Part shown: piece by piece, positions 17,172-39,467 of the stretch
How positions within the stretch are numbered: position 1 is the first letter of the stretch
Layout of the letters: every line of letters begins with the position of its first letter
NCBI GenBank assembly: GCA_963674735.2
Contig: CAXXQS010000002.1
Coordinates: 1,728,001 to 1,792,000, forward strand
Direction of reading: 5' to 3'
Length of the DNA: 64,000 nt
Source of the DNA: Myxococcota bacterium
GTDB taxonomy: Bacteria; Myxococcota_A; SURF-8
Program-made: the position numbers and the translations under genes
The notes under the pieces: model-generated
Told to the model about the DNA's origin: nothing
Databases searched by the model: none
Seen by the model: only the letters and a program-made list of their open reading frames with translations

Positions 17172-18026
17172 ATGGTCAGGACAAAGAGTGGGATATCGGC
17201 GATCCATACGGTGGGTACGTTCATGAATGGGCGGGCATGCTCGGATACGCTTTTTCATGTGCTCAGCCGTGCATTCGACGATCCACTTGAACGTGAAGAG
17301 AAGGCGACCTCCTTATTCGCGGGTGGTATCCTGCAATATGGCTACCAGTGCGGGATGCTTTGGGGAGCGACGCTTGCCGCAGGAGCACGGACGCATCGAC
17401 GCTTGGGATCGGGACCGCGAGCCGAAGTCGAAGCGGTTGCCGAGGCACAAAGGCTTGTGGAATTATTTCGTGCTCGCAAAAACTGCATCAATTGTTTCGA
17501 AATAACGCATACCGACCGGTCATCGTCAACCTTGGAAATGATCCTGTATTTTCTTGTCAAAGGTGGAACCATCGGCTGTTTTCGTATGGCTGCGGGATAT
17601 GCATCTAAGGCATTTAACGAGCTTACGGATGGCGTGGGCGAGTTACCCGATAAAACGCTTGCTCCGCCGGTCAGTTGTGCGGCGGTCGTGGCTCGGAAGA
17701 TGGGGGCATCTGAGTTGCATCAAGGCATGGTGGCGGGATTGGCGGGGGGTATCGGACTATGCGGGGGTGGCTGTGGCGCGCTGGGAGCTGCGCTATGGAT
17801 CGTCGCGATGGATTCAGCCAAGGAAGGGATCAAGGGTAATCTCTGGAATTCAAAGCTCTTCAAATCGCGGGCCGATGAGCTGATCGATCGTTTCCTGAAG
17901 TGTTCCGGTCATGAATTCGAATGCTCCCAAATCGTTGGGCGGCAGTTTGAGAGCATCGCCGACCATGCCGCTTATCTGCATGATGGCGGTTGTTCGAAAG
18001 TGATCGAAACCTTGTCTGTACGGTGA
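17172..18026 (+). CDS. C-GCAxxG-C-C family putative redox protein (two tandem domains)
   Basis: FAGG...QCGMLWGA...NCFEI and LAGGIGLCGGGCGALGAA...ECSQI. Confidence 0.75.
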   Translation: MVRTKSGISAIHTVGTFMNGRACSDTLFHVLSRAFDDPLEREEKATSLFAGGILQYGYQCGMLWGATLAAGARTHRRLGSGPRAEVEAVAEAQRLVELFRARKNCINCFEITHTDRSSSTLEMILYFLVKGGTIGCFRMAAGYASKAFNELTDGVGELPDKTLAPPVSCAAVVARKMGASELHQGMVAGLAGGIGLCGGGCGALGAALWIVAMDSAKEGIKGNLWNSKLFKSRADELIDRFLKCSGHEFECSQIVGRQFESIADHAAYLHDGGCSKVIETLSVR

Positions 18027-18163
18027 TCAACTTGAAAAACGTGATACGCGCTGGATTGCAAGATCAATACAACGGTTTGATTTCATTTGAGAAAATACGA
18101 TAAATGTGCTAATTTTGATAGAAATCTAAATGACTTCCGCTACATAAACCACAGGATACCGAT

Positions 18164-19996: not shown

Positions 19997-20095
19997 GTTA
20001 GGGTTGTCCGTTGCAAGCGGTAGCGTGATCCAACGTGCTTCGACGATTGGCACGACTTCGTTGATCGGGTACTGGAAATCGTAAATAACTGCCAT

Positions 20096-20130
20096 AAAAA
20101 CAGCCACTTGACCAAAATGCCAAGTGGCTG
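20096..20130 (-). terminator. Terminator downstream of tRNA-His
   Basis: CAGCCACTTG/CAAGTGGCTG 10-bp stem followed by TTTTT on the minus strand. Confidence 0.65.
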
Positions 20131-20137
20131 AAATTAT

Positions 20138-20215
20138 TGGGGTGGGTGATGGGATTTGAACCCACGGCCTCCAGGGCCACAACCTAGCGCTCTAACCAAC
20201 TGAGCTACACCCACC
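20138..20215 (-). tRNA. tRNA-His (GTG)
   Basis: GGTGGGTGTAGCTCAGTTGGTTAGAGCGCTAGGTTGTGGCCCTGGAGGCCGTGGGTTCAAATCCCATCACCCACCCCA; G-1, TTC loop, CCA end. Confidence 0.96.
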
Positions 20216-20487
20216 ATACCAAAGGTCCGCCTCCAAAGCAGGCGAGACGGTATAATGGCGAACCGCGTCGCGTTTGTCAAGATTTCTTGCAGCTAAAAAA
20301 GTCATTCATCCGTTAAACAACCACTTGAGCGAATCCCGACCGCCGGTTTGAGTCACCCGGCGGGCGAACCGAATTTGAACATCGATAATAGGATTCTAAC
20401 TTGAGATCTGGTTGCAACTTTGCACAATGCCCCTAGCGTTGACAATCGGTTTGAAACGCCCAATCAATCAACCTGCGAGGTGGTCGG

Positions 20488-22140: not shown

Positions 22141-22161
22141 AACGACGCCTTGAAAAAATAA

Positions 22162-22195
22162 ATGGCCGATCCAAGCGGGTCGGCCGTCTTTTTTT
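22162..22195 (+). terminator. Terminator between convergent genes (possibly bidirectional)
   Basis: GGCCGAtCC...GGgTCGGCC stem flanked by A- and T-runs. Confidence 0.65.
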
Positions 22196-22216
22196 CAAAG
22201 AAAAAGCGTGTTCGGC

Positions 22217-23290
22217 TCAGTCGGCGGCTTTCCACCCGAACCAGGTGAGGAACGGCAATCCCGCGCCGGTGGCGGTTTCGATACCTTGACCGGATGACGC
22301 GACTTCGGCGTTCTGAATCAAAGCCCACTCGCCTTCCATGACCGGTTCATCGTCCCAGGTGTAGGTGGCGACGCTGCCGAGACCGTATATCAGGACGTCG
22401 CTACCGGCCGCCAGACCGGTCGTATTCTCGATCCATACATGCACGGCATCGGGGTCGTGCACTTCCACCTCGGGTGCAACGGTGAAGAGTTGTGCGGGTG
22501 GGTCGGCCGGATCGATAAAGCAGGGCCAGCCCCAGGCGTCGGCGTCCCACTCCATCAGGTTGATATCGGCATAGCCGCCCTCCAACGGAGTCAGATCTTC
22601 GGGAATGACGGTCAACATCGAGTCGCCGGAGAGGTGCATCGCGTGTTCCGTTGCCGGATCGTCCAGCGGGTCGCGAAGCGATTCGGGGACGGCAGGCAGT
22701 TTGAAGGCGGTGCTTGTATCGACGTTACCCCCGCTTCCGAGATCGATGGGACAGGACAGCGAAATGCGGCCGGTCAGCTCCACCGGCAGGAAACGAATCG
22801 CCGAATGCTGGAGGCATTGCTGTGCTTCGGGGACCAGCACCTGGTAACGGCCGTTATCGTCGGTGAAAACGGGGCGCAAGCAGGCGCCTTGGTTGTCCGG
22901 TCCGATTATGCAGGCAAAAACGCTGACATCCACCAGCGGGTCGTCGTTTTCGTCCACCACCAAGCCTGATAGCGAGGTGACGCGTACGCCATCGCAACTC
23001 GGGTCGTCGCCATCGGGGGTGTCGCCATCCGGGTCGTCGCCGTCGGGATCGTCACCATCGGGGTCGTCACCATCGGGTTCGTCGCCGTCGGGCTCGTCGC
23101 CGTCGGGGTTGTCGCCATCCGGGTTGTCGCCATCCGGGTTGTCGCCGTCGGGATTGTCGCCGTCGGGGTTGTCGCCATCCGGATTGTCGCCGTCAGTGCT
23201 GTCGTCGCTTCCACAGGCGGTTCCAAGTGCGAGTAAAACGATCAGGAACAGGAAAAACAAGGCAGATTGCAGGGCGTGTCGGTTGTGCAT
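22217..23290 (-). CDS. Lipoprotein with (PDGDx)13 linker and carboxypeptidase-regulatory-like beta domain
   Basis: Lipobox GTAC; LSGLVVDENDDPLVDVSV...TDDNGRY. Confidence 0.75.
   Translation of the reverse strand: MHNRHALQSALFFLFLIVLLALGTACGSDDSTDGDNPDGDNPDGDNPDGDNPDGDNPDGDNPDGDEPDGDEPDGDDPDGDDPDGDDPDGDTPDGDDPSCDGVRVTSLSGLVVDENDDPLVDVSVFACIIGPDNQGACLRPVFTDDNGRYQVLVPEAQQCLQHSAIRFLPVELTGRISLSCPIDLGSGGNVDTSTAFKLPAVPESLRDPLDDPATEHAMHLSGDSMLTVIPEDLTPLEGGYADINLMEWDADAWGWPCFIDPADPPAQLFTVAPEVEVHDPDAVHVWIENTTGLAAGSDVLIYGLGSVATYTWDDEPVMEGEWALIQNAEVASSGQGIETATGAGLPFLTWFGWKAAD
23003..23197 (-). repeat. 15-bp coding tandem repeat, 13 x (PDGDx)
   Basis: In-frame PDGDN/E/D/T units. Confidence 0.9.
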
Positions 23291-23357
23291 GAATGCTTCT
23301 CCAAAATAAAAACCGGCGCACCAAAGAGGCTACGCCGGACCGTTTTTTTATCCGTTT

Positions 23358-25028
23358 TTACAGCTCGCCGTCGGCGGCTTCAGCCTCAACGACTTCCAAC
23401 TCGGTTTCATCTTCGGTCATCTCAGCTTCGGCGATATCGCCATCCGTTTCATCCTCGGTTGATTCGGCTTCCATCTCGTCTTCCGTTCCGTCGCCATCCA
23501 CTTCGGCGTCCGTGTCGCCATCGACAACCGGGTCCATGTTGTCTTCCGCGATTCCGATATAATCGAAGGGCGGTAGAGGATTGTCGCCGAGTTCTTGAAT
23601 CAGCTTCATGTCCGACATGCGGATGGCCGATACCCAAGGGATGCCGCTGAACATTTCGGAGTAGAAGATCACGGGGAAACCGGCCGTGTTGTCGTGGTCG
23701 GAAATGCGGATACCCTTTTCGCAGCCATAGCCATCCATGAGCCCGTCGGCGTATTCGGCGTCGGAATCACGTCCGGCGGCGTCTTGTCCGATCACGTAGA
23801 GAAGCTGGGATTGACGCGCGATCAGTTCCTCTTCCAGTCCGCCATCGTTGCAAACGCGCTGGCGGAACAAGTCGCGACACGCCGGGCACCAGCCGGCGCC
23901 GACGAAGACGAAAAGGGTTTTGATTTCGGGGTGGTCGCAGCGGTACTGAGCCAGATCGAGGCCCACATCCTGGCCTTTGTAATAGGCGCTGGGCCATTCC
24001 ATCGGCGGAACGACTCCCGGCTCCGGATTGCTCTGGCCGGGTGACGGGCCCATGAAATGATAGGGACCATCCGGGTAGTCGCAGGTTGTGTCGGTGGGTT
24101 TTTCCATGTCCACATAGCCCGGCTCGGTGATGGCATCGAGGAACGTTTTATCTCCGAGGCACCATTGCCAGCCGTCTTCGACCGGTGTGGTATAGCCATT
24201 GCTGGTTTTGATCGTGACTTCCTGCAGGTTGAGGTCGGTGAATGAACCGCCGAAGGGTTCCTTGAGCGCTTTCCCCAACTCGGTGAAGCTGACCGTCGCA
24301 CCGGCGATGGGCATGAAGCTGCGTGCGCAGGTCAGGGTGCCGGAACTACCGATGTTGCAGGCCTGTTGCACGGTAATGCAGGTGCTGCAGGTGGCCATGC
24401 TGGTATCGGCTTCCGCGATGGTGAAGGTGGTAGGACTTTGCGGCCCGCCTTTGTCGCCCTTGATCACGACTGTCAGAACATCCACCGGATAGGCGCTTTT
24501 GTTGTAAACGGTATAGGTCCAGGTGGCGAGGTCGGTTTCGTCGTCGACCTCCACTTCCGCCCGTTGGCTGCGGGTGACGAAGCCTTCTTTGTCACAGGGG
24601 TTGTCATCATCGCCGTCGGGATCGTCGCCGTCGGGATCGTCACCGTCTGAGTTGTCACCGTCGGGATCATCGCCATCGGGGTCGTCGCCATCGGAAGCAT
24701 CGCACAGGCAATCGAAGTTGCCGGTAGAGGTCATGCCGCAGCCGACGGCTTGAACACCCAGCGCCATGCAGGCCATGTTGCAGTTTTTGACTTTCCATTC
24801 GCCGAATTCGCAGGCACACAGGTTGCTTCCCATACAATAGCCGCCGGTGGTTGCATCGGCACAAGAGCCTTCACAGGCCGGTTCGTCGCCATCGCCGTCG
24901 GAACTGTCTCCGTCTTCGGTGTCGCCATCCGACGATGATCCGTCGGATTCATTGCAGCCACTTGCCGCGAAGACGATCAGGGAAAGGGCCAGCATGGCGA
25001 TCAGCGTCCAGATCTGTGTGCGTTTCAT
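23358..25028 (-). CDS. Acidic Cys-rich lipoprotein with DGD repeats and a thioredoxin-like CxxC domain
   Basis: Lipobox ASGC; Cys-rich module, six xDGDD/N units, GAGWCPAC, acidic tail. Confidence 0.75.
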   Translation of the reverse strand: MKRTQIWTLIAMLALSLIVFAASGCNESDGSSSDGDTEDGDSSDGDGDEPACEGSCADATTGGYCMGSNLCACEFGEWKVKNCNMACMALGVQAVGCGMTSTGNFDCLCDASDGDDPDGDDPDGDNSDGDDPDGDDPDGDDDNPCDKEGFVTRSQRAEVEVDDETDLATWTYTVYNKSAYPVDVLTVVIKGDKGGPQSPTTFTIAEADTSMATCSTCITVQQACNIGSSGTLTCARSFMPIAGATVSFTELGKALKEPFGGSFTDLNLQEVTIKTSNGYTTPVEDGWQWCLGDKTFLDAITEPGYVDMEKPTDTTCDYPDGPYHFMGPSPGQSNPEPGVVPPMEWPSAYYKGQDVGLDLAQYRCDHPEIKTLFVFVGAGWCPACRDLFRQRVCNDGGLEEELIARQSQLLYVIGQDAAGRDSDAEYADGLMDGYGCEKGIRISDHDNTAGFPVIFYSEMFSGIPWVSAIRMSDMKLIQELGDNPLPPFDYIGIAEDNMDPVVDGDTDAEVDGDGTEDEMEAESTEDETDGDIAEAEMTEDETELEVVEAEAADGEL

Positions 25029-25315
25029 GAAATATCCTTTAGCATCGGTTGTCGTTACATGGGGGTCGATCAGCTTGCGCGGGTACGTATAAGGCGATGG
25101 TGCTCACCTCGGAACCCGGGGCGCTGTTCGTCTTTGTTTGCAATTTTAATTGCGGTCTTTAATGTGAAAGCTCCGTGACAAGCTTGTCGCACCTTGTCCA
25201 CACAAAGCGGCAAAGACTATTTGATAACCCACACGGTGTGATTTGTCAATGCCGATTGCCGGATAAGCGTGCAAGAATCGAGGGTTAAAACCTAGATATC
25301 CGTCGGAATGCTGGG

Positions 25316-25759
25316 TTAGTCGGCGGTTTCATCCGGATTTTCGGGCTCCGTACTTTCGGCTTCCGGCTGTGTTTCTTCTGCCGTTTGTTCAGGTTGCTGC
25401 TCGATTTCCAGTGACTTGACCGACGGTCCCGGAGCGGGCAGGGGCGGTGTGTAGGGTGTCGTGAAGGGCAGATCGGTTTCCGTTACGGCATCCGGGGGAT
25501 CGACTTTGCCCAGACCTTGTTCCGGCGGCGACCATTTTTCCCAGTTATTGGCCACATTATCGGCTCCGCCGGCCATTTCACCCACGGCGATGCTCGAAGC
25601 CGCTTTTCTATCGTGGGGATTGGGCAGGCTCTCGGCCCGTTCCTGCTTGGCCTTGTAGGCGCGGTAGTTCCGCTCGTGGCCGTCGTTGGCGTAGGTGGCA
25701 CAGGCGCTCAAACCGAAAACGACGGAAACGACGATGATCATCCGGCGTAGCATGGCCAC
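25316..25759 (-). CDS. Hypothetical lipoprotein
   Basis: Lipobox LSAC; AAGGAGG RBS. Confidence 0.7.
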   Translation of the reverse strand: MAMLRRMIIVVSVVFGLSACATYANDGHERNYRAYKAKQERAESLPNPHDRKAASSIAVGEMAGGADNVANNWEKWSPPEQGLGKVDPPDAVTETDLPFTTPYTPPLPAPGPSVKSLEIEQQPEQTAEETQPEAESTEPENPDETAD

Positions 25760-26190
25760 CTCCTTGGAATGGCGTTCAACACATTTTTATTATACCGTGC
25801 TACGGAAAGAAAACAAGATCGGGATGCGAAAGAAGGGGGCAACCTCACCCATCCGCCGTTCCGTCGCTGCCGCGAACACGGGAGGAAAATATCTCACCCA
25901 CCCGCTTGGCGGACCTCTTTCATATTGTGGAGGGGCGATTTCGTTCGCCGTTAAACGGCGAACCCTTTCCACCCTGCAATACGGGGAGGGAGCGAAGCTT
26001 CGCCGGGAGGGGTTGTCCAACTCAATTGCCGCCATTTCCTCACACATCGGACATTATTTTAAATATCTCTACCATCATTGCTTTTAAGCTGCCTGATTCG
26101 TGATGATGCGCTTTACCATGGATTTCTTTAATCCATGAACGCCCTTTGCAAACCTGGTCATGGTGTTCGAGTCCAAAGTCTTGCAAAACG

Positions 26191-26216
26191 AAAACACCCC
26201 GGCCGAAACCGGGGTG
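26191..26216 (-). terminator. Rho-independent terminator
   Basis: CACCCCGG-tttcgg-CCGGGGTG-TTTT on the minus strand, after the 26242 gene. Confidence 0.7.
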
Positions 26217-26241
26217 CGAGTTGTTCAATCTGAAATGTACT

Positions 26242-27522
26242 TTACTCGGCGCTTTTTCTTTCGATGGTGATCGCCGGGGTGGTGGCCAGGTAGTCGTCCT
26301 CGAAGTATTTCCAGTAGCGTTCATCCTGGTTGACGAAGATGTTCAGATAGGCGGTCGTGGCGGTGTTGATCAGACCATAGGCGAGATCGGGATCGGTGAA
26401 ACCGGTTCCACACCCGTATTCGGGAAGGTTGAGAATCTCGCACATGTTGGAGAACGTGAAGTGCCCCGCTCCTTCCAGCTCCCAGTAAATCGTGTCGGGG
26501 TGAGTGGCGTGTTCGAAGAAGGGGTAGACTTCCGAGACCGCCGGGATGGTGTCGTCCAATTCGCCTGCCATCAGCAGCATGGGGACGTCGATGGCTTCGA
26601 TTTCGCCTTCTTTAAATACCGCTTGCAGGGCCGGACACATGGGTACCGAGACCAGGATGCGGTCGTCTTTGAAACTACAGGGCGTGCAGTCCTCCGCATA
26701 GGACATGTCGGCGTCTTCCAGCATATCCTCGCAAAAACGCCAGCCGCCGGTCCAGTTTTCTTCGCCCAATTCCTCGCATTTATCAAGGAAATCGTTCATG
26801 TCGAAGGCTGGGCCTAACACGGCGATGACGGAGTAAGCGCCGAAACTGTGGCCGGTAGCGCCGATGCGGGCCGGGTCGATTTTACCTTCGAGCATATGGC
26901 CGGAGGTGGTGTTCCATTCCAAGAGCGTATCGATCATCAGCGATAGATCCTGTGGACGGTCCAAGGCGCTTTTCACCAGGTATTTGTCATCCTGGGTCCC
27001 GGTGGTGTCTTCGATGTGATCGCAGGCGGCAACGATGAAACCGTGGGTGGTCAGGTATTCGGTGAGGAAGTAGCTCTGGGCGTCGAAACTCTGGTGGCCG
27101 TGGGAGAAGACGATCAGTGGAAATGGCCCGGGGGTTTCCGTCAACGGAGCGTCTTCGATGGCGCTGCCGAGTGGGATAACACCCTGATAATACATGATAT
27201 CACCTTCCGATTGATCGGTTGGATACCAAACCGTGCCGGTCAGGTCGCGCCCGCGCGCGGCATCGACGAAGCGAGTGGAAAAGGCGCCGACGTGATAGGG
27301 ACCGGGATCTTCGGCGGGCAGGAATTCCGGTTCGTCGCCGTCCGGGTCATCGCCATCGGGTTCGTCGCCGTCGGGGTCATCACCGTCGGGATCATCACCG
27401 TCGGGGCTGTCGCCATCCGGGTTGTCGCCATCGGTCGGCGCTGTTTCGTCATCGGACCCGCAGGCCGATAGCGCGAATAATAACAAAGCGATCGAGCATC
27501 CGATTATCCACTTTCGCAACAT
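26242..27522 (-). CDS. Lipoprotein with (PDGDx)7 linker and alpha/beta hydrolase (PAF-AH/dienelactone hydrolase-like)
   Basis: Lipobox LSAC; PLIVFSHG, GHSFG nucleophile elbow, GELDD, GAGHFTF. Confidence 0.85.
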   Translation of the reverse strand: MLRKWIIGCSIALLLFALSACGSDDETAPTDGDNPDGDSPDGDDPDGDDPDGDEPDGDDPDGDEPEFLPAEDPGPYHVGAFSTRFVDAARGRDLTGTVWYPTDQSEGDIMYYQGVIPLGSAIEDAPLTETPGPFPLIVFSHGHQSFDAQSYFLTEYLTTHGFIVAACDHIEDTTGTQDDKYLVKSALDRPQDLSLMIDTLLEWNTTSGHMLEGKIDPARIGATGHSFGAYSVIAVLGPAFDMNDFLDKCEELGEENWTGGWRFCEDMLEDADMSYAEDCTPCSFKDDRILVSVPMCPALQAVFKEGEIEAIDVPMLLMAGELDDTIPAVSEVYPFFEHATHPDTIYWELEGAGHFTFSNMCEILNLPEYGCGTGFTDPDLAYGLINTATTAYLNIFVNQDERYWKYFEDDYLATTPAITIERKSAE

Positions 27523-28992: not shown

Positions 28993-30816
28993 TCAGGCTT
29001 TGGCGGCGGCCGCCTCCTTGGCCTGCGCGGATTTCTTGCCGATCCACCATTGCTGGGCGATCGTCATCACCGTATTGGCCAGAATATACAAGACCAACCC
29101 GGAAGGCAAGACCAGCATGAAGACGAACATCATCACCGGCATCATGTACATCATCATCTTCTGCTGCTGCGAATCGGGGGTGGGTGTGAGTTTTTGCTGT
29201 ACGAACATCAACACACCTAAAAGCGCCGGGAGAATATAGTAAGGATCGGGACGCACGAGGTCGGTCAACCAGCCGGGAATGAAGGGTTCGTTGTAGAGCT
29301 CCACCGCGTTTTGCAGCATTTTGTAAAGCGCAATGTAGACGGGCATCTGCAACAGCATCGGCAAACAGCCGCCCATGGGGTTGACCCCCTCCCGTTTGTA
29401 CAACTCCATCATCTGCTTGTTGAATTCCTGTTTGTCCTCCCCGTGCTTGGCCTTCAACTCGTCCATCTTGGGTTTGAGTTCCTTCATCTTCTGCATCGAC
29501 TGGAAGGATTTGTAGGTCAAGGGGTACAGAATGAGCTTGATCAGGATGGTCAGAATGATGATCGCGATGCCCCAGTTGTACACGAACTTGTAACTGTATT
29601 TCAGCACCCACAACATGGGTTTGGCCAGTGCGCCCAATACCCAGAAATCCACCGATTCGTCCAGGCGGTGCCCCACCTTGGTCAAGGTGGTGTACTCCTT
29701 GGGACCGATGAACATCTGGTAGGAAAGATCCTTGCTTTCACCGGGCATGACACGCTGCTTTTCCAACATGTGTGTTACCGCCAGCCAGTTGTGCGTCCCC
29801 TCCGTGCCCAAGGCGTCGGTAGAGGCCTGCTGGACGTTCTTGATGGTGATCTGGGAGCGCAGGTCGTCGGGCGGCAGCAGCGACAGCAGGAAATAGCGGT
29901 CATCGATGCCGGCCCATAAAATCTGACCTTTGAGGATCTTGGCGGTCTGCAATTCTTCCTTGTCCGTCTCTTCGTACAATTCGCCGTCGATGAAGGCCTT
30001 GGGAATCTGCAGGTTGAGCGGCATGGAGCCGAAGATGCCTTGTTGCACGTTGGCATCGTTCTGGTGGCTGACGAGGCGGATTTTGGGGAAGAAACTGGCC
30101 GGAGCGGCGGCCCGGTTTTCCACCGAAAGTATCAGGCTGAAGACGTAGTCGCCTTTGAAGGCAAAACGCTTGCGTAACACCACGCCCTGGGGCGTTTCGT
30201 ATCGATAGACCACCGACGTGTCGTCGGCGTCTTCGAGTTCGAAGGTGGTGTCGGGGTCGTAACTGAAATTCGCCTGATCGAATAGGAGCGTGCCGGGAAA
30301 GTTTTCAGGTTCCTTGACCGTCACCACGTCCACCTGGCGACGCTCGTCTTCGGAACCCGGCACCGGTTCGGAATATTTGTCGGATTTCAGGATGAACGAC
30401 TTCAAACGAGCGCCACGGTTGGTAAAGGTGGCGAGGAACTCGTTTGTTTCGATAATCGTATTCTGCTCGGCCGGGACCGGAGCTTCAGCCTTGGCCGGGG
30501 GTTCCGCTTCGAGAGTCGGTGCGGTGTCGGCGCTTTTCTCCTCGGAATCGGCGGCGATGGCCGGAGTGTCGGTCTCCGCGACGGCTGGTGCATCGGATTC
30601 CGCATTCAGCGCGGGCAGCATGCTTTCGGGTTTCTCACCGACGGCCGTCGGCTCGTCGAAACTCGGTTTGACGGCGTCGGGAACCGGGGCTTTTTCGGCA
30701 ACCGCCGGCTTTTTAACCGGCGTCGGCGCTTTGGGCGGCGGCGGATTGATGACGACATTCCACAGGAAGAGGATTCCCATCGAAAGTACCAGGGCGAGAA
30801 TCAGGCGACGTTCCAC
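28993..30816 (-). CDS. yidC: Membrane protein insertase YidC
   Basis: NWGIAIIILT, NPMGGCLPMLLQMPVYIALY, PDPYYILP. Confidence 0.96.
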   Translation of the reverse strand: MERRLILALVLSMGILFLWNVVINPPPPKAPTPVKKPAVAEKAPVPDAVKPSFDEPTAVGEKPESMLPALNAESDAPAVAETDTPAIAADSEEKSADTAPTLEAEPPAKAEAPVPAEQNTIIETNEFLATFTNRGARLKSFILKSDKYSEPVPGSEDERRQVDVVTVKEPENFPGTLLFDQANFSYDPDTTFELEDADDTSVVYRYETPQGVVLRKRFAFKGDYVFSLILSVENRAAAPASFFPKIRLVSHQNDANVQQGIFGSMPLNLQIPKAFIDGELYEETDKEELQTAKILKGQILWAGIDDRYFLLSLLPPDDLRSQITIKNVQQASTDALGTEGTHNWLAVTHMLEKQRVMPGESKDLSYQMFIGPKEYTTLTKVGHRLDESVDFWVLGALAKPMLWVLKYSYKFVYNWGIAIIILTILIKLILYPLTYKSFQSMQKMKELKPKMDELKAKHGEDKQEFNKQMMELYKREGVNPMGGCLPMLLQMPVYIALYKMLQNAVELYNEPFIPGWLTDLVRPDPYYILPALLGVLMFVQQKLTPTPDSQQQKMMMYMMPVMMFVFMLVLPSGLVLYILANTVMTIAQQWWIGKKSAQAKEAAAAKA

Positions 30817-30841
30817 AGGCCCTCTCCTTGAGGTTCGGTCG

Positions 30842-31090
30842 TTAACGGTCGCGTTTCACGCGCGGCCAGCCGTTTTCCACCGGATCGTAACCGCCGGGAA
30901 AAAGCGGGTGGCAGCGTAAAAGCCGAGTCATACTCTTAAGTCCTCCGATGATCAGGCCGTAGCGCGTCACCGCCTCGATGGCGTAGTCGGAGCAGGTCGG
31001 ATGGAAGCGGCAGCGAGGTCCGAGCCAGGGAGAAATGATCCGCTGGTAAAGCCGAACCGGTAACACCGCCAGCCATCTCAGCCACATCAT
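30842..31090 (-). CDS. yidD: Membrane protein insertion efficiency factor YidD
   Basis: YQRIISP...[10 protein letters not shown]...LLRCHP..PGGYDPV. Confidence 0.95.
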
Positions 31091-31461
31091 GCCTGCATCT
31101 CCCGTTTGCGGCGCTGGTGGGCAAAGCGGCGGACCATTGTCTCGAACTCCTTGGCCACCAGATGGAACGGCGCGGGACGGGGGAGCTGACGTCGGGGAAT
31201 GACCACGATGTCCATGCCCTCACCTTCGAAGGGTTGCAGCAGCCGGAACGCTTCACGGCAGACACGCTTGATGCGGTTGCGCACCACGGCGCAGCCGACT
31301 TTCTTGCTGACGATCAGCCCCAAGCGGGCGTGCTCCACTTCGTTCGGCCGCAGTAGAAACACAAAGCAATTCGTGACGATCTTGCGGTTATCGGCCTGTA
31401 CTTTAAGAAAGTGACCGCGCCGCAAAATGCGCCTTGATCGAGGGAAACCGTTTGGTTTCAT
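31087..31461 (-). CDS. rnpA: Ribonuclease P protein component
   Basis: [21 protein letters not shown]. Confidence 0.95.
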
Positions 31462-31619: not shown

Positions 31620-31877
31620 GGCTCACCTCTCCGTTTGTTACCTATAAAAACCCTAATCGCTCAGGGGGCAGAAGTGAAGCATTAATACCCCGCGATGTCA
31701 AGTTATTTTGCCTCACGCTCCCTTGTGCGAGTGCTCGGTGTTTCGCAACGAGCGGGACATCGTATCTTCGCAAACCTTATAACGGAAAAGCCTTGCGAAG
31801 TCATGAAAAATCGTTCAGAATTAGACGGTTTTCCAAGCAGTATCATTACCCAAAATCGACTCAGGCGAAGTGGGGCC

Positions 31878-34031
31878 ATGGCAGAAGAAACTCTGAACCG
31901 AAAAATGCGAATCTTGGTTGTGGACGATGATCGGGAGTTGACCTCCGGTTTTATCAAGCTGCTCGAAGGTGAGGAGTTTGAAGTTCACGGTTTTTACAGC
32001 GGGAAATCGGCTCTGGATGCCATCCAGGAGCGTCCCTACGAGTTTGCCTTCATCGATGGTCTGCTTCCGGGGATCGATGGCTTCAAGCTGTGCGAAGAAA
32101 TCCGTTGGATCAAGCATTCGGAGAAGATGCCCATCGTGATGATGTCGGGAGTTTACCGTGCCAGTACCAGTGCGGTGGAGGCGCGTCAGAAGTATAAGCT
32201 TTTGGATTATCTGGAAAAACCGATCGCACCGGCGGTCATCATCAAACTGTTGCGCAAACATTTCGGCAACGAGTATCCCAAGCCGTTGGATATGATGGAA
32301 AGCGATGGCTTTCACTCCATGATCAACACCTATTTTATGTACGATGCAACGAATCTTCCGTTGATCGGTCGTTTGGAAGCCGTGCCGCTTCCGGTGTTGC
32401 TCAACCAGATCTGGGCCCGCAAACTGACCGGGCAAATGCTGATTTCGTGGAAGAAAGCCAAGAAAATCGTCAGCTTCGAAAAAGGACGGCCGGTGTCGGT
32501 TAGCTCCAATATCATCGGCGAATGCTTGGGGCAGCAGCTCCTCAAAGACTCCGTAATCGATCAAAACCAACTGGATGCGTCGCTTGAGATCATGAAACAG
32601 GTCGTCAAACGCCAGGGTGAAGTGTTGCTGCAGATGCATGCCATCAGTTCCCTGCAATTGGCCGAAGCCTTGCGGCGGCAATTCGAGATCAAACTGTTTT
32701 CCGTGTTTCAATGGCAGGACGCTTCGTACAGCTTCAAGGCCTTGGAGGCTTTGCCGTCGGTTCCCAGTAAAATGGATCTGCATCCCTACACCCTGATTCG
32801 TAACGGCGTGATGCAGCATGTGACGGTCGACCGACTTCAGCTCTGGTTGAAACCCTATCAAAGTGCCGAAATTCACGCCACCGAAAACTGCGAAAGCCTG
32901 ATGCGGGAAGGTGGATTCAATCTGAAGGAGACGCGTTTCGCCCAAAATCTGGACGGGCTGGAGACGTTGAAAGAGGTGCTGGAAACGCCGTTCAAACGCA
33001 AAGATGATATGGCGGCCTTCATTTTCACTCTGATCGCCATCCGTGCCGTACAATTGGGCCAGCCGAAAGAAGACGACAGCGAGGTGGATGGCGAGACAAA
33101 GGTGTTCAACGGCGAACGCGAAGAAAGTCTGCTCGTTGCTCATGCTCACCACTTGCGTGATATCAATCAGGTTCCGACCGAACGAAACGATATTTCCGTC
33201 ATGGGCGCATCGGGAAAAACGCGGGCGATGAGCAAAGAAGACATCGAACGCCTTGAACTGATGCAGATCTTGCAACGGCTGACACCGGAGCAAAAAGGCC
33301 AGTACCAGCGGCTGTACGAATTTTACAAGAAGAACCAGGAAAAAAACTATTTCGAGATTTTCGACAGCGATCGACAGACGCCGATCGAGCAGATTAAAAA
33401 GCGGTTTTTGGAATTGGCCAAAACCTACCACCCCGACACGATCGCCCATCAGGATGTGCCCGAGATTCGGCGGTTGGCGGATGAAATATTCACGCTGCTT
33501 TCCAAGGCCCATGAGAATCTGACCAACAAGAAGAAGCGGGCCGAATACATGGAATATCTCAGCGGGGGCGGCAATGAAGACGCCACCGAGGAAGTCGCCA
33601 AAATCCTGGCCTCCGAAGAGCATTTCATGGAGGCCAAAACCGCCATCAAGCGCAAAGATTGGACGGCCGCCAAGCGTTCCCTGCTGGAAGCGCTGAAACT
33701 CAACTCGAACGAAGGCGAGTATTATTGCGAGTTGGGTTGGGCGCACTTCAACCTATCGGCCAACGACATGGTTTCGCGGCAGGAAGCCATCAAGTATCTG
33801 GAAAAAGCCATCGAGGTGACGCCGCGACTCGCCGACCCGCATTTTTATCTGGGGTCGATCTACAAGTCCGTGGGCGATCTGGGTAAGTCGGTGGATGCCT
33901 TCAGAGAATGCCTGCGCATCGATCCCAAGCACCATCGTGCCAAAAGCGAGATGCGGCTATTGAAAATGCGCCGCGAGGAAGAAGTCAGGGCGAAGGCCAA
34001 GGGCGGCCTTTTCTCTCGCTTCAAGAAGTGA
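31878..34031 (+). CDS. Response regulator receiver-DUF4388-DnaJ(J domain)-TPR multidomain protein
   Basis: ILVVDDD...DGLLPGIDG...EKP receiver; KLTGQMLI...VSFEKGRP; KTYHPD J motif; C-terminal TPRs. Confidence 0.85.
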   Translation: MAEETLNRKMRILVVDDDRELTSGFIKLLEGEEFEVHGFYSGKSALDAIQERPYEFAFIDGLLPGIDGFKLCEEIRWIKHSEKMPIVMMSGVYRASTSAVEARQKYKLLDYLEKPIAPAVIIKLLRKHFGNEYPKPLDMMESDGFHSMINTYFMYDATNLPLIGRLEAVPLPVLLNQIWARKLTGQMLISWKKAKKIVSFEKGRPVSVSSNIIGECLGQQLLKDSVIDQNQLDASLEIMKQVVKRQGEVLLQMHAISSLQLAEALRRQFEIKLFSVFQWQDASYSFKALEALPSVPSKMDLHPYTLIRNGVMQHVTVDRLQLWLKPYQSAEIHATENCESLMREGGFNLKETRFAQNLDGLETLKEVLETPFKRKDDMAAFIFTLIAIRAVQLGQPKEDDSEVDGETKVFNGEREESLLVAHAHHLRDINQVPTERNDISVMGASGKTRAMSKEDIERLELMQILQRLTPEQKGQYQRLYEFYKKNQEKNYFEIFDSDRQTPIEQIKKRFLELAKTYHPDTIAHQDVPEIRRLADEIFTLLSKAHENLTNKKKRAEYMEYLSGGGNEDATEEVAKILASEEHFMEAKTAIKRKDWTAAKRSLLEALKLNSNEGEYYCELGWAHFNLSANDMVSRQEAIKYLEKAIEVTPRLADPHFYLGSIYKSVGDLGKSVDAFRECLRIDPKHHRAKSEMRLLKMRREEEVRAKAKGGLFSRFKK

Positions 34032-34146
34032 AAACCAAGAAATTACAAGATATTTCGGCGACGTAAGCGGTTGCCCCGAAGGCGTGGTCGGTGACGGTCC
34101 GGAGACCGCTACCCGCGAGGGGATCGTGTAGTTGCGTGCGGCCGCT

Positions 34147-34797
34147 TTACGGGCAGGCGTGGTCGCTGCAATGCCACAGGCCGGTTTTGCATTCGCAGCG
34201 GTTGCAGCCGGTATCGCGACCGGCAATGGCGCCTTCATCATCGCAGGCGGTCGCCTGGGCGACGGGTTCCACACAGCTTTCGCCGTCATCCGCCGCTTCG
34301 GCTTCCAGACAGGCCATCACGCATGCGTTGCAATACAACGCTTCGTCGGTGGCGCAAAGCCACTCGGCCGAATCATTGGAGCAGGCCTCGCAATCATCGA
34401 AACACTCCGGCGCGGGGATTTCGCAGAGGGATTGGTCCTTTACAATGCCGTCAAGTTCGCTCGGTGGCAAACATGGCGACAGCGTGCATCCATCGTCACG
34501 AAAATGGGCAATCCCGTAATGTTCTTCTTTACATGCAAGTCCCAAGTTCGGCTTGCGACAGTGCATCATCGACGGCGCCGCCGAAACGCTTTCGCAGGCC
34601 ATCTGGCATTCGTTGGCATAGACGTAGCCGTCCTCACCGCAGATACCGGATACCGTGGAGGCGATCCATCGTGTCTCGGAAAGCTGGCAATCGCCGACGC
34701 AAGACGTATAGGCATCGATGTCATTTTCGTCGCCACAGGCAGAAAAAAGAAACAAAGAAATGACAATGAAAACGAAATATTCTTGGATTTTTTTCAT
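34147..34797 (-). CDS. Cys-rich lipoprotein with Kazal-like x2 and pacifastin-like domains (putative serine protease inhibitor), allele 1
   Basis: Lipobox FSAC; ICGEDGYVYANECQMAC; LCATDEALYCNACVMAC; C-x12-CNRCEC-x2-G-x3-CSDHAC. Confidence 0.75.
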   Translation of the reverse strand: MKKIQEYFVFIVISLFLFSACGDENDIDAYTSCVGDCQLSETRWIASTVSGICGEDGYVYANECQMACESVSAAPSMMHCRKPNLGLACKEEHYGIAHFRDDGCTLSPCLPPSELDGIVKDQSLCEIPAPECFDDCEACSNDSAEWLCATDEALYCNACVMACLEAEAADDGESCVEPVAQATACDDEGAIAGRDTGCNRCECKTGLWHCSDHACP

Positions 34798-34812
34798 CTT
34801 TACACCTCCTGA

Positions 34813-36155
34813 CTATTCGTCGCAGCGGACAAAGGGATAGCCGTTATCTGTATGCTCGTCGCAATCCAGCCCCGTCTTTTCACGTATCCAGGAAATTTTG
34901 CGGTCGATTCGGCAAGCGACTTGATCTGCACCCGTTGGGGCAGCGCAATTTGATGGTTCTCCATTTGCACAAACCTGCCTTGCGGCACCTGAATGGATTG
35001 CATCAAAAAGCCACAAGTTACCTGTGTACCTCGCCCAACCCGTTCCAGAGTCACCAAAGCAAGTTCGGTAATTATCGTTAGCATCATCCTTAACCATGTA
35101 ACTATATACAGAATCAAGCGAGAAACTTCCCCATCGCTTAACACCATCTCCAGAGTCAATGCACATGGAATTGTATCCACTTCCCCAAATCGTTTGAGCC
35201 CATCCTTGCGAGGGTGTTCCATTATACAGTCGGGCTTCGCTTATATTGCGATTCCAGCCAGGGGAAAAATATATCAGGCCAATGTCATCGTTTGTATCAA
35301 CCGTTCCTCCACCGCCCGAGTAGTCAATATGCATACGAAACCAAGCTGTCTTTGCATTATCACACTCGGTATGGCCTGCGATTGAATCAGTGATACATTC
35401 CTTCGCGCCGGTATTTTTATTCCACCAGTAAACTTGCAGACAACCGGAACATGTTGCAGCCAAATCTGGATCATCATTCGGAATGGCCATATCAATGCAA
35501 TGCGCTGCTGTTAGAATCCAATGATCGTTAATAATAATTCCATTGCAATAGCTAGGCTCTGGAGCATTTGGAATATTCCAATAGTTAACCCATATCTCCA
35601 CCACACTCTGGCTTGAATTCCAACTGGGAGTATCCCCCTTCCAGATCATCGGAACGATTTCGCCTTCTTCGGTGTCATGGTCGGGTTCTTCGTGCATCGA
35701 CGCTTCCGAGGCGAGAAAGGCCTGTTCCTCCGGGTCCACCGGTTCGATGGCCGGATCGGGCTCGAAGAATTCTTCGCGGGTGTTCAGGTAGTTTTTGGCC
35801 TGGATCGCCAGATTGGCCTCGGCGCAGGTCGCCACCTCGGTCAGGCCAGTCAGTTTCACGGCAAGCGGGTTTTTGCTCAGGAAACGGTTGATGGCGTCGT
35901 AATGGTAGCGGTAATCGACGCCGTTGATGCGGCAGATGCCGAGATGCTCTTGCGAGTAGTCGTCGGGCGGCATCTCGCCTTCCTCGTAGCCGCAATGCCC
36001 GCCGTCGGAAAACGGTTCCACATCGAAACCGGAAATCAGCTCATTCAAGGCGATTTCATCGGGCGGGTCGATGCTTAAGGGGGGGGGTCACCACCGCATC
36101 CGTGGAACAGAAAAACCGCCAAAGCCGCACTTGCAAACACCATTACTCGCCGCAT
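34813..36155 (-). CDS. Trypsin-like S1 serine protease lipoprotein, allele 1; frameshifted at a C9 tract as sequenced
   Basis: WILTAAHC, DDIGLI, CFGDSG triad; signal MRRVMVFASAALAVFLFHGC from ATG 36155 (AGGAG RBS) joins the 34813-36048 ORF only if the tract is C7/C10/C13. Confidence 0.82.
36079..36087 (-). repeat. Poly-C tract (C9) in protease 1, candidate phase-variation switch
   Basis: G9 on + strand; reads GAC CCC CCC CCT TAA. Confidence 0.7.
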
Positions 36156-36200
36156 GAGCATCTCCTATCGATTATACATCCAATATGAGACATGAAAGAA

Positions 36201-36229
36201 ACTTTAGCAGTCGAATGAGGAGGTGTCAA
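36201..36229 (-). promoter_or_regulatory. sigma70 promoter of cassette 1
   Basis: TTGACA-N17-TAAAGT with TG extended -10; additional TATAAT at 36171-36176. Confidence 0.7.
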
Positions 36230-36399
36230 TCGAAAAAAGCGAGCGAAGGCCAAGGGCGGCCTTTTCTCTCGCTTCAAGAAGTGAAAACCAAGAAATTACA
36301 AGATATTTCAGCGACATAAGCGGTTGCCCCGAAGGCGTGGTCGGTGACGGTCCGGAGACCGCCACCCGCGAGGGGATCGTGTAGTTACGTGCGGCCGTT

Positions 36400-37077
36400 T
36401 TATGGGCAGGCGTGGTCGCTGCAGTGCCACAGGCCGCTTTTGCATTCGCAGCGGTTGCAGCCGCTGTCGCGACCGGCAATGGCGCCTTCATCATCGCAGG
36501 CGGTCGCCTGGGCGACGGGTTCCACGCAGCTTTCGCCGTCATCCGCCGCTTCGGCTTCCAGACAGGTCATCACACAGGCATTGCAATACAGCGCCTCGTC
36601 GGTGGCACAAAGCCATTCGCTCGTATCGTCGGAGCAGGCCTCGCAGTCATCGAAACATTCCGGTGCGGGGATTTCGCAGAGGGTGGAGTTCTCGGTAGGC
36701 CCGACATCACTGTCCCCAACGTCCTCACATAACTGAAGCGTACAACTATCAGATTGAAAAATCGCAGTATCGTAGTGCTTACAGCTATGGGACAGTTCCG
36801 GACGGCGGCAGTACATCATCGATAGCGCGGCTTCATCGCCGTAACATTCCATCTGGCATTCATTGGTGTATATGCTTCCATCTTGCCCACAGATACCAGA
36901 TTCATATAGACTCATTAGGCTGTCTTCCAGTTCTCCACAGGTTTCCAGGCAGACGGCCAAAGGATCGTTGTCACCGTCGGCATCGCCATCTCCGAGCGAG
37001 TCGTCATCCCCGCCGCAGGCGGAAAGGAGAAATACTGACAAGATAATGAAAATAAAATTTTCTTGTATTTTTTTCAT
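36400..37077 (-). CDS. Kazal-like x2 and pacifastin-like inhibitor lipoprotein, allele 2
   Basis: Lipobox LSAC; ICGQDGSIYTNECQMEC; C-terminal ~93 aa nearly identical to allele 1. Confidence 0.75.
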   Translation of the reverse strand: MKKIQENFIFIILSVFLLSACGGDDDSLGDGDADGDNDPLAVCLETCGELEDSLMSLYESGICGQDGSIYTNECQMECYGDEAALSMMYCRRPELSHSCKHYDTAIFQSDSCTLQLCEDVGDSDVGPTENSTLCEIPAPECFDDCEACSDDTSEWLCATDEALYCNACVMTCLEAEAADDGESCVEPVAQATACDDEGAIAGRDSGCNRCECKSGLWHCSDHACP

Positions 37078-37092
37078 TTTTCCACCTCCAGG

Positions 37093-38441
37093 CTATTGGT
37101 CGCAACGGACAAAGGGATAGCCGTTGTCTGTATACGACGGACAGGACAATCCTGTTTTGTCCCTTATCCAGGAAATCCTTCGATCAATACGACAACCGAC
37201 TTGAGCCGCACCGGTGGGTGCTGCACAGAAAGTTCTTCCGTTAACATCACCGCCATTACTACAAGTACCTTTTGCAGATGCTGAGTGAATGGCATCGAAA
37301 AGCCACAGATTTCCCGTATACTTTACCCAGCCTCCACCGGAATCGCCGGAACAGACTCGATAATCATCACCAGCGGCCACATAATCAACCACCGTATAAC
37401 TGGTCACGGATTCGAGAAAAAAAGCGCCTACCCTTTTAGTACCCAATCCAAGTGGAGTGCATAAGGAATTGAATCCAGCTCCCCAAATCGTTTGAGCCGA
37501 GTACCAGGGCGGTGTGCCGTTAAAAAGTCGAGCTTCACTGATGTTTTCGTTCCAGCCCGGCGAGTAGTATATAAGAGCGATATCGCTTCCTGAGTCCGGA
37601 TTGCCAGCATAGTCGATATGATAACGAAAAGTGGCGGTTTTTCCTGTTTGGCATTCGGCATGTCCCGGCGTTGAATCGGTAATGCACTCTTTCGTTCCCG
37701 TGTTTTTATCCCACCAGTAAGCCATCAGGCAACCCGAGCAACTATAAGATTTGTCGGGATCGTTGGGGGGAACCGCCTGATCGACACAATGAGCCGCCGT
37801 TAGAATCCAGCGATCATTGATAACAATCCCTGTACAGGTATTTCGATCATTAGGATCATCCCATTTGCCGGAATGAACTAGAACTACACTTTGGCTGGTG
37901 TTCCAATTCGGGAAATTGCCCGTCCAGATCATCGGAACGATTTCGCCTTCTTCGGTGTCATCGTCGGGTTCTTCGTGCATCGACGCTTCCGAGGCGAGAA
38001 AGGCCTGTTCCTCCGGGTTCACCGGTTCGATGGCCGGATCGGGCTCGAAGAATTCTTCGCGGGTGTTCAGGTAGTTTTTGGCCTGGATCGCCAGATTGGC
38101 CTCGGCGCAGGTCGCCACCTCGGTCAGGCCAGTCAGTTTCACGGCAAGCGGGTTTTTGCTCAGGAAACGGTTGATGGCGTCGTAATGGTAGCGGTAATCG
38201 ACGCCGTTGATGCGGCAGATGCCGAGATGCTCCTGCGAGTAGTCGTCGGGCGGCATCTCGCCTTCCTCGTAGCCGCAATGCCCGCCGTCGGAAAACGGTT
38301 CCACATCGAAACCGGAAATCAGCTCATTCAAGGCGATTTCATCGGGCGGGTCGATGCTTAAGGGGGGGGGGGGTCACCACCGCATCCGTGGAACAGAAAA
38401 ACCGCCAAAGCCGCACTTGCAAACACCATTACTCGCCGCAT
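37093..38441 (-). CDS. Trypsin-like S1 serine protease lipoprotein, allele 2; frameshifted at a C12 tract as sequenced
   Basis: WILTAAHC, SDIALI, CSGDSGG; same signal and propeptide as allele 1, from ATG 38441. Confidence 0.82.
38362..38373 (-). repeat. Poly-C tract (C12) in protease 2
   Basis: G12 on + strand; again one C short of frame. Confidence 0.7.
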
Positions 38442-38486
38442 GAGCATCTCCTATCGATTATACATCCAATATGAGACATGAAAGAA

Positions 38487-38515
38487 ACTTTAGCAGTCGA
38501 ATGAGGAGGTGTCAA
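38487..38515 (-). promoter_or_regulatory. sigma70 promoter of cassette 2
   Basis: Identical TTGACA-N17-TAAAGT. Confidence 0.7.
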
Positions 38516-38528
38516 TCGAAAAAAGCGA

Positions 38529-38570
38529 GCGAAGGCCAAGGGCGGCTTGTTTTCTCGTTTCAAGAAATAA
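38529..38570 (+). other. attR-like site: displaced original 3' end of the J-domain gene
   Basis: GCG AAG GCC AAG GGC GGC TTG TTT TCT CGT TTC AAG AAA TAA = AKAKGGLFSRFKK*, synonymous with 33990-34031. Confidence 0.8.
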
Positions 38571-38582
38571 TGTATCCCGGAA

Positions 38583-39185
38583 TCACAGAATACCCCAGCG
38601 CTTTTGAATGATTCGCGATACGGCGAACAACACCAGCGCGGCAGCGGCGACGAGCAGCAGGGCCGCCGGATGGTAGGGGGCGATCTGCCAGCGCATCAGC
38701 AGCGGGCTGTAGGAAGCCAGCGACGCCAGAACGACCGCCAGGGCGAACAGACGCGATCGGGGCGCTTTGTCTCCCAGGTGGGCGAAAGCCAGCGTGGCGG
38801 CAATGGCGGCAAAGGTGATGGCGAAGAGGTTGCCGGGATGCACCCAGGGATCGAAATTGTCGAGGGAGGTCTCGTGCCAGGCGATGAAGGCTTTCAGGGT
38901 GGCAAAACGGTAGGTGACCGCGCTACTCGAAAGCAGCAGCGACAACAGCAGGGTCCAAGGCATCCGCTTGCTGGAGTCGACCAGCGGTTTGCCGCGAAAG
39001 GTGATGTGTTGCGGAAGATTGAAGCTGCGAAAGACGATGGCCAGTGCGGCGAACAGAAACACCGCCAGGGTCACTTCCTGCGCCTGCAGCAGAATCGGCC
39101 AGTAAGGGTCGGGAAGACGCTTGGCCAGTCCGAGCATGGTGAAAGTGAGAGTCAGGCTGGCAAGCATCACGTACAGCATCGGCAT
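38583..39185 (-). CDS. Hypothetical multi-pass membrane protein
   Basis: About six hydrophobic segments; start uncertain (ORF track extends to 39374). Confidence 0.55.
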   Translation of the reverse strand: MPMLYVMLASLTLTFTMLGLAKRLPDPYWPILLQAQEVTLAVFLFAALAIVFRSFNLPQHITFRGKPLVDSSKRMPWTLLLSLLLSSSAVTYRFATLKAFIAWHETSLDNFDPWVHPGNLFAITFAAIAATLAFAHLGDKAPRSRLFALAVVLASLASYSPLLMRWQIAPYHPAALLLVAAAALVLFAVSRIIQKRWGIL

Positions 39186-39467
39186 CCTTGACGTTGCGAT
39201 TTTGTCGAGATTCGATCCTAAACCAAGTTCTTCGTGCAAGCAATAGACGCCCCGATTTTTATCTCCTCGTTTACTACTTACCGTTCCATGGAATTCTTTT
39301 TCTTCTTGTCTCCGTTTAGCGTTGACCCATTCCGGCAAACGCGGTAGAGCATACTCGGGTAGGCCGCCTCGCACGATTCGGGCGGTAATTGGGAAGAAGA
39401 GACCCGCTTGGGCGCTCTTCTTCTTCGAAAGCTAACAGGACGCGCGAAGGCGCGGAAGGAGGACGCG

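Follow-up and report, generated by a model that had tools for sequence, protein, structure and literature searches.

Integrons combine an intI gene and its attI site with promoterless cassettes, each of which carries an attC hairpin. Contingency loci undergo phase variation through homopolymer tracts, and families of tandem paralogues are subject to concerted evolution. Cis-mobilizable elements (CIMEs) are known as att-flanked elements that lack an integrase and form tandems where a gene ends (PMC5704250). Tycheposons of Prochlorococcus target tRNA genes, measure several kb or more and, when active, carry an integrase and replication modules (10.1101/2020.12.28.424599). Here, we describe a locus in a 64,000-nucleotide stretch of DNA from a Myxococcota bacterium (positions 1,728,001 to 1,792,000 of contig CAXXQS010000002.1, assembly GCA_963674735.2; hereafter the window), in which three exact copies of an 18-bp core mark off two tandem units of about 2.25 kb, each with a protease gene and a gene for a Kazal-like lipoprotein, at the 3′ end of a gene encoding a J-domain protein. 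Our favoured explanation, to which we assign a probability of about 0.55, is a single CIME-like insertion at the core, followed by the gain of a second unit through core recombination and then by evolution as a tandem repeat.

Results

Three core copies and two codings of one gene end

The core (GCGAAGGCCAAGGGCGGC) is found without mismatches on the plus strand at 33990, 36243 and 38529, and its spacing gives unit lengths of 2253 bp (unit 1) and 2286 bp (unit 2). A fourth copy with up to two mismatches is absent from the window, where 0.01 matches are expected by chance and three matches were reached in none of 100 shuffles. The whole genome (5.26 Mb in three contigs) holds no exact copy beyond these three, and its only further match is one unrelated site with two mismatches on the same contig.

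The target gene (31695–34031, plus strand) encodes a 778-amino-acid protein with a response-regulator receiver domain, DUF4388, a DnaJ-type J domain and tetratricopeptide repeats (TPR), as judged from its open reading frame (ORF) and Pfam matches. Its last 14 codons consist of the attL-like core copy 1 (33990–34007), which encodes AKAKGG in frame, and a 24-nt tail (34008–34031) encoding LFSRFKK and the stop codon. The letters of this tail are the same as those at 36261–36284, and it is therefore assigned to the repeated unit. Core copy 2 with its tail (36243–36284, plus strand) forms the internal, attP-like junction of the two units, whereas the attR-like core copy 3 is followed by a recoded version of the last eight codons, here called tail′ (38529–38570 with the core, plus strand). 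Tail′ differs from the tail at 6 of 24 positions, all of them synonymous, so that both encode LFSRFKK and a stop. Peptide and stop survived only 11 of 500,000 random sets of six substitutions, which indicates that tail and tail′ are coding versions shaped by selection. In its present place core copy 3 with tail′ is untranslated, with an in-frame TGA ten codons upstream and no start codon. The first-pass annotation of this DNA had given the same core positions, unit lengths and sequences, together with the synonymous recoding of the tail peptide, and had proposed the genome-wide search for the core that left only these three exact copies.

Left of core copies 2 and 3 lies a constant, promoter-bearing segment, region X. 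Over the 173 nt that precede the tail position (X beyond a poly-G tract, plus the core), copies 2 and 3 show no mismatch, and copy 1 becomes homologous to the other two exactly where its core begins, since the part of the gene that precedes 33990 is dissimilar. The locus is thus att-flanked and integrase-less in its layout, with each of the three exact cores preceding a coding version of the last eight codons of the gene. It is reasonable to regard this succession of attL-like, internal and attR-like sites as matching recombination at the core. A 53-codon ORF (36223–36384, plus strand) with a GTG start after GGAGG crosses core copy 2 in another frame and recurs in a shorter version at core copy 3, but this ORF is unlikely to be a gene.

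The neighbouring gene in related genomes

Orthologues of the target gene were sought in 41 genomes, all from outside the genus. Each of the five other genomes of the family contains a single full-length match with 41–46% identity. The C-terminal tail motif (G, two hydrophobic residues and a hydrophobic-basic end) is kept in 10 of the 11 orthologous loci examined, which supports both tail versions as real coding ends, and the AKAKGG encoded by the core lies within a poorly conserved Lys-rich linker.

In one family member, G003, the orthologue is directly adjoined by a convergent gene for a membrane-protein homologue (55% identity, 199 amino acids), with no protease operon between them. The corresponding gene in the window, the ancestral neighbour of the target gene, is convergent and lies at 38583–39374 on the minus strand (ORF; no Pfam family). 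The arrangement in G003 thus equals the window locus minus everything between cores 1 and 3, which identifies these 4.5 kb in the window as an insertion. Protease and Kazal genes are absent from all six relatives' loci over the 0.6–12.5 kb of downstream sequence that each provides. The comparison with empty sites proposed in the first-pass annotation therefore returned the gene-to-neighbour layout in G003, but neither an exact empty site nor another cassette number in these relatives. Upstream of the target gene (28993–31461), ORF translations indicate the conserved rnpA-yidD cluster and, after it, a gene for a large membrane protein. Near the uninterrupted locus of G003, a short ORF (L023, 4202–4819) resembles, by eye, a transposase fragment.

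The tandem in short-read contigs

Three public runs of one study (X1, X2 and X3) cover the stretch and were available as assembled contigs. X1 and X2, two runs of one sample, may derive from the source sample of the window itself, so that the check does not depend on the assembler but may still rest on the same data. Contigs of X1 and X2 end or start at 34019, 36260, 36243 and 38517. With words of 31 letters, such breaks in the contig table point to three paths, namely gene body-core-tail, X-core-tail and X-core-tail′, and the 18-bp core shared by all of them could not alone break contigs at this word length. A shared segment of 621 nt has a depth of 24 in X2 against 10.1–11.3 for the unique parts, values of 10.3 and 10.5 among them, or about twofold. 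No joints, insertions or deletions are listed for contigs over the stretch. The tandem junction, for which the first-pass annotation had considered an assembly artefact, is present in short-read contigs of two runs. X3 contains a fraction of 0.44 of the sampled words over 33700–38800, in short pieces of 100% identity whose loose ends stop at GATC; we considered it as a variant locus and rejected it, the GATC ends being read as those of a ligation-type (proximity-ligation-like) library of the same study.

A protease and a Kazal-like lipoprotein in each unit

The minus strand of each unit has a promoter of the sigma-70 type, a short ORF for a lipoprotein signal peptide, and genes for a trypsin-like protease and a Kazal-like lipoprotein. 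The promoter, recognized by consensus match only, reads TTGACA-17-TAAAGT with a TG extension (10 of 12 consensus positions), lies 15 nt from the core and is present at 36201–36229, in region X near core copy 2, and again at 38487–38515. The only Pfam matches in the units are Trypsin and Kazal; neither unit contains a recombinase domain, and the Pfam scan returned no integration or transfer genes inside them. ORFs, Pfam and promoter matches thus bear out the unit make-up reported in the first-pass annotation, a promoter and two genes without a recombinase.

The main ORF of the first protease, Prt1 (34813–36048, minus strand, 411 amino acids), shows 74% amino acid identity to that of Prt2 (37093–38331, minus strand, 412 amino acids; Pfam Trypsin, E = 4.3e-10). 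The PF00089 scores of the two are 23.7 and 40.2 bits, with a cut-off of 20.6, and the assignment of Prt1 also rests on alignment. Codons 1 to about 135 of Prt1 form a constant, pro-region-like part and the remainder a variable catalytic domain. H183, D255 and S334, in the contexts TAAHC, DIGLI and GDSG, are invariant in all four aligned proteases; we take them to be the catalytic triad by motif, not by structure.

The Kazal gene begins 15 nt past the protease stop codon. Kaz1 (34147–34797, minus strand) is a 216-amino-acid lipoprotein with two Kazal-like Cys motifs (Kazal_1, 24.7 bits; cut-off 21), its N-terminal two thirds being variable and its last 85 or so residues constant. Its paralogue Kaz2 (36400–37077, minus strand, 225 amino acids, 63% amino acid identity overall), identified by ORF, Pfam and alignment, falls under both Kazal cut-offs (20.9 vs 22.8 and 16.9 vs 21). 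The Cys framework, with two C-x-x-D-G-x-x-Y-x-N-x-C-like motifs, is kept in all four homologues.

The Kazal-like lipoprotein is presumably an inhibitor of the protease of its unit. Most plausibly, the protease is a lipoprotein that is secreted or displayed at the surface, and the two-motif protein is its cognate inhibitor; mature enzyme and first inhibitor motif may co-vary as specificity pairs. We infer this paired function from the domain content and from the common boundaries of the variable block described below. Complex prediction for Prt1 137–411 with mature Kaz1 22–216, from four-row alignments each, gave scores of 0.00 and 0.00, which weighs neither way. PADLOC returned no match among the unit proteins, and NCBIfam none except Prt2 against FusH, far under the cut-off. 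Among titles and abstracts, the literature yielded nothing relevant on bacterial Kazal-trypsin lipoprotein operons.

Conserved ends and divergent middles

Between units 1 and 2, the left 410 nt or so (core, tail, spacer and the last 85 or so Kazal codons) are 93–100% identical, and the right 600 nt or so (the first 135 or so protease codons, signal peptide and promoter) 87–100%, mostly 97–100%, whereas identity in the central 1.2 kb or so drops to 37–73%. Synonymous divergence (dS) is 0–0.06 over protease codons 1–120. From codon 150, the proportion of synonymous differences (pS) reaches saturation at 0.8–1.2 in most windows of the alignment, with two at 0.41 and 0.56, and nonsynonymous divergence (dN) is 0.18–0.47. 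The last 47 codons of the Kazal gene have a dS of 0.1–0.25 and its N-terminal part is saturated. The variable block starts at an IWKG motif common to the protease homologues, at which, by analogy with mature N-termini of the IVGG type, we place the beginning of the mature enzyme.

Base composition shifts at these boundaries as well. GC content at third codon positions (GC3) is 0.77–0.78 in the constant part of the protease and 0.42–0.44 in the catalytic part, which is under the 5th percentile of the genome (558 long ORFs: mean 0.667, sd 0.09, 5th percentile 0.50). It is 0.52–0.58 in the N-terminal and 0.70–0.72 in the C-terminal part of the Kazal gene. The steps within genes are sharp, setting 34410–35620 and 36660–37900 apart from 35640–36242 and 37923–38528. 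Single-copy homologous proteases at two other loci, L028 and L051, have a GC3 of 0.36 and 0.41 throughout, and the constant part of the window proteases far exceeds the same region of the homologues (0.24–0.52). GC-biased gene conversion between the repeats is a possible cause of this contrast. Unequal crossing-over or homologous recombination with gene conversion would alone fit the mosaic units as well as accretion would.

A homopolymer tract between signal peptide and enzyme

In both units, the lipoprotein signal peptide is encoded by an ORF separate from that of the protease. The signal ORF of Prt1 (36075–36155, minus strand, 26 codons; ORF translation) contains a 9-G homopolymer, C on the coding strand, at 36079–36087, which lies inside the 621-nt short-read contig with no gaps. 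That of Prt2 (38358–38441, minus strand, 27 codons), in the same frame relation to its protease, contains a 12-G homopolymer at 38362–38373, outside the listed short-read contigs. The signal ORF (MRRVMVFASAALAVFLFHGCGGDPPP, with one P more in unit 2) stops at a TAA right after the run of 9 or 12 C, and the protease ORF starts at the C run in the −1 frame, with a TGA just before it; both copies are thus out of frame. In the intact homologues P0003 and P0004, and in L051, the signal peptide is fused in frame with the protease.

The two frames would be joined by one added C or by a −1 slip, and the run makes a C CCC CCU heptamer before the stop. The 59 nt that follow the C run give a stronger fold than do 198 out of 200 shuffled sequences (z −2.86), with a predicted stem that begins after the first 4 nt. 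Runs of at least nine G or C number only 11 in the genome, and of the other nine, five lie inside long open frames and none shows the split pattern. Phase variation, programmed −1 frameshifting and an inactivated gene are all possible readings of the split. In L051, a family-level relative, the 5′ end of the protease gene (1451–1480) has 3.8 tandem copies of the 8-nt sequence GCAGGTAT, every one of which includes an ATG; this part of the gene is thus prone to slippage there too, through another kind of repeat.

Distribution of the protease-Kazal pair

Among 5.8 billion proteins, four near-full-length relatives of the protease were found, two of which are the window's own, and among shorter proteins, where none of six candidates scored, there was no cassette variant with the constant protease N-terminus. 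A metagenome scan gave one close locus, L028 (46% identity), among 23 confirmed loci, the rest being weak trypsin-motif matches, and a scan of GTDB species gave one, L051. The protease family occurs in two of ten genomes of the order. Both L028 and L051 contain a single protease-Kazal pair, in two other gene contexts, without the J-domain gene or the core, and no repeats flank the module ends there and no integrase is present. Standing alone in differing contexts, the pair is thus a conserved two-gene module whose location varies. No relative was found among 147 pattern matches in viral contigs, plasmids gave no match, and the ESM Atlas gave no usable match to the N-terminal 136 residues of the protease. 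The variable cassette content that the first-pass annotation had expected at the array thus did not appear in proteins, metagenomes, the GTDB species set, viral contigs or plasmids.

In the window, 14948–27522 is a run of lipoprotein genes with Asp/Gly/Ser-rich acidic stretches right after the lipobox Cys; within it, two neighbouring paralogues, 14948–15850 and 15854–16753, have this N-terminal stretch in common. Proteins of a similar acidic or (GE)n kind are encoded at L028, at L051 and at the relatives' loci.

Recombinases

The window contains no recombinase gene of PF00589 or PF00239. An integrase search of the genome, as proposed in the first-pass annotation, did return 11 matches to PF00589 (tyrosine recombinase) and 6 to PF00239 (resolvase), but none is tied to a core copy; the nearest PF00589 match (C2:1803292–1803807) lies about 37 kb from the array, outside the window. 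A related integrase-bearing element using the same att site was found neither in the genome nor at L028 or L051, close relatives being lacking, and searches of the genome gave no further copy of the core, region X or the unit. No other array size was seen in the assembled contigs.

Discussion

Origin of the array

Under the favoured explanation, a CIME-like insertion that later evolved as a tandem repeat, we infer the following mechanism and order of events. A two-gene module with its own promoter, encoding a lipoprotein S1 protease with a pro-region of about 135 amino acids and a two-motif Kazal-like lipoprotein, would have entered the 3′ end of the target gene through a single reciprocal exchange of the Campbell type within the 18-bp core, in which an incoming circle (X-core-tail...) recombined with the gene end (body-core-tail′). 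Since the incoming DNA would have brought its own core and last eight codons, the host gene would have stayed intact, and the original gene end would have been left untranslated beside the old neighbour gene. The two codings of the tail abut perfect identity, which argues that the right copy is the original end and that the left copy came with the insert, a pattern typical of elements integrating at gene 3′ ends. An integration-type event quite probably made this first insertion. The second unit may have come from a further core recombination, by either recombinase-mediated accretion or unequal crossing-over. Its capture is supported by the saturated variable blocks, which both keep a foreign-looking GC3; its duplication is supported by the host-like or higher GC3 of the ends, by their unequal ages and by the lack of any other variant in the databases searched. 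Since then the array would have behaved mainly as a tandem repeat, with its 0.4–0.6-kb ends homogenised by gene conversion or homologous exchange and its central 1.2 kb (mature protease and first Kazal-like motif) holding two old, co-varying alleles. Between nearly identical direct repeats of 600 bp, units are bound to be gained, lost and converted by RecA-dependent exchange. As the unit lacks a recombinase, a CIME-like element in minimal or decayed form is the best reading of it.

Several observations weigh against this reading. In a genome that is 94% complete, there is no integrase or helper linked to the core and no second core or region X. Contigs of the assembled runs showed neither excision joints nor circles nor empty sites, but rare variants tend to be lost from contigs; the circles of about 2.25 kb and the empty-site junctions suggested in the first-pass annotation as a check were thus not seen in contigs of these runs. 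The imperfect inverted repeat at the internal junction is unexceptional (z −1.59; 16 of 200 shuffles fold as well), and a structured recombination site there was dropped as a candidate on this ground. Changed codons number 0 of 6 in the core and 5 of 8 in the tail, a difference that reaches only about p = 0.03 in a hand-computed Fisher test, and the exact identity of the third core could mark the end of a gene-conversion tract rather than a conserved crossover site. The sole uninterrupted layout comes from a genome at 44–46% protein identity, the comparison being with genomes of other genera. None of the six relatives' loci repeats its own J-domain gene tail downstream, and the gene end is therefore not a visible integration hotspot. 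Finally, none of the models gives a clean account of the GC3 contrast.

Active, non-autonomous cassettes of 2.25 kb, acquired independently from a pool whose members share conserved ends but vary in the middle, and captured serially at the core by a recombinase encoded elsewhere, would also account for much of the locus, since attL, an internal attP-like junction and attR are the exact product of accretion. The middles are saturated, yet the GC3 of their protease part is near that of the homologues, which argues against long divergence inside this genome, and the 11 PF00589 and 6 PF00239 matches represent recombinases that could act in trans. However, no recombinase is linked to the core, which has no copy elsewhere, and no further constant-ended variant came to light among the proteins, viral contigs and plasmids searched. 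Imports would be expected to be uniform in composition, yet the constant ends have a host-like or higher GC3. The divergence of the ends is also unequal (dS about 0 on the right, 0.1–0.25 on the left), which separate gene conversions would fit better, and the 600-bp near-identical repeats suffice for a change in copy number without an integrase. Serial capture is unlikely, and the accumulation by an integrase in trans that the first-pass annotation had proposed is unsupported, with no helper, other core copy, empty site, circle or further variant found in the material searched. The replacement 3′ end and the attL/attR layout of its att-site signature do stand; the mobility it ascribed to the units is not supported. 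We likewise regard as unlikely a more elaborate form, in which a trans-recombinase platform would stack miniature, promoter-bearing, recombinase-free protease-inhibitor cassettes at the 18-bp site within the last codons of the conserved J-domain gene, with the slippage-prone poly-C tract gating expression of each protease. Each cassette would then regenerate the C-terminal motif of the gene, in an integron-like capture without intI or attC.

The locus could also have formed with no mobile element, if two J-gene paralogues once flanked the operon, the right one was deleted down to its last 14 codons and the unit was duplicated by unequal crossing-over. Such a history explains the two synonymous tail versions without an integrase, and none was found nearby. 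We nevertheless consider it very unlikely, given the single full-length match in all five other genomes of the family, the gene pair of G003 with no operon between its members, and the occurrence of the protease pair in unrelated contexts at two other loci. It also takes more steps, among them a deletion with one end precisely where the 18 identical bp begin. A false tandem join of two strain variants of a single-unit locus is conceivable in a metagenome-type assembly, in which repeats of 0.4–0.6 kb at 93–100% identity are error-prone. The contig breaks in two runs, however, fall where a real X-core-tail junction predicts them, and in X2 the 621 nt common to both units are covered about twice as deeply as the unique parts; even with the runs possibly from the same sample as the assembly, this makes an artefact extremely unlikely.

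Significance and relation to known systems

If the units are or were mobile, they would be among the smallest cargo-only integrative modules described and would illustrate a way for an operon of two genes to enter a conserved gene and leave it undamaged. Island finders keyed to integrases miss such events, and the core with its flanks would provide a defined site pair for finding the recombinase responsible. Regardless of mobility, the array is a natural example of tandem units whose ends evolve in concert, with a protease and a first inhibitor motif kept as old co-varying alleles, of a strong GC3 contrast across sharp boundaries, and of a homopolymer that, in either copy, lies between signal peptide and enzyme. 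Should the array be no more than an old scar followed by duplication, it reflects the ordinary genome plasticity of an uncultured bacterium.

The locus shares with integrons the tandem arrangement of small gene units, none of which contains a recombinase, at a single site of recombination. It differs in that no intI lies beside the array, the nearest PF00589 match being some 37 kb off, in that the junction is no attC-like structured site, and in that each unit has its own promoter match. Its site, moreover, lies inside a coding gene, the end of which each unit restores. The comparison with an integron array made in the first-pass annotation thus fails on intI, attC and promoterless cassettes. 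The 9- and 12-nt homopolymers in the 5′ coding region, which set the frame, recall contingency loci, and the homogenised ends and divergent middles of the tandem copies recall concerted evolution; here, however, variation in tract length within the population was not observed, the runs being available as contigs only, and variability extends over both the enzyme and the protein presumed to inhibit it.

Tycheposons resemble the locus in that repeated integration at the same site pushes older elements inward and leaves partial target copies between elements as well as degenerate, integrase-less remnants (10.1101/2020.12.28.424599). Here, by contrast, a gene for a protein is the target, and members with an integrase are not known. 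Among known kinds, the CIME in tandem comes closest, together with the tandem accretion of ICE- and IME-type elements at the 3′ end of a target gene. CIMEs have attL/attR direct repeats, no integration or transfer genes, a duplicated gene 3′ end and tandem arrangement with an internal att site (PMC5704250), and to call the locus an undescribed system, as the first-pass annotation did, was therefore too strong. The mobilisation of the present units is putative, and remnants of genes for integration or transfer are absent from them. No integrase-bearing relative with the same att site was found. The locus differs from the known kind in this respect and in two others: its units are paralogous mosaics rather than unrelated elements, and they are very small, only 2.25 kb each, filled by a promoter and two cargo genes.

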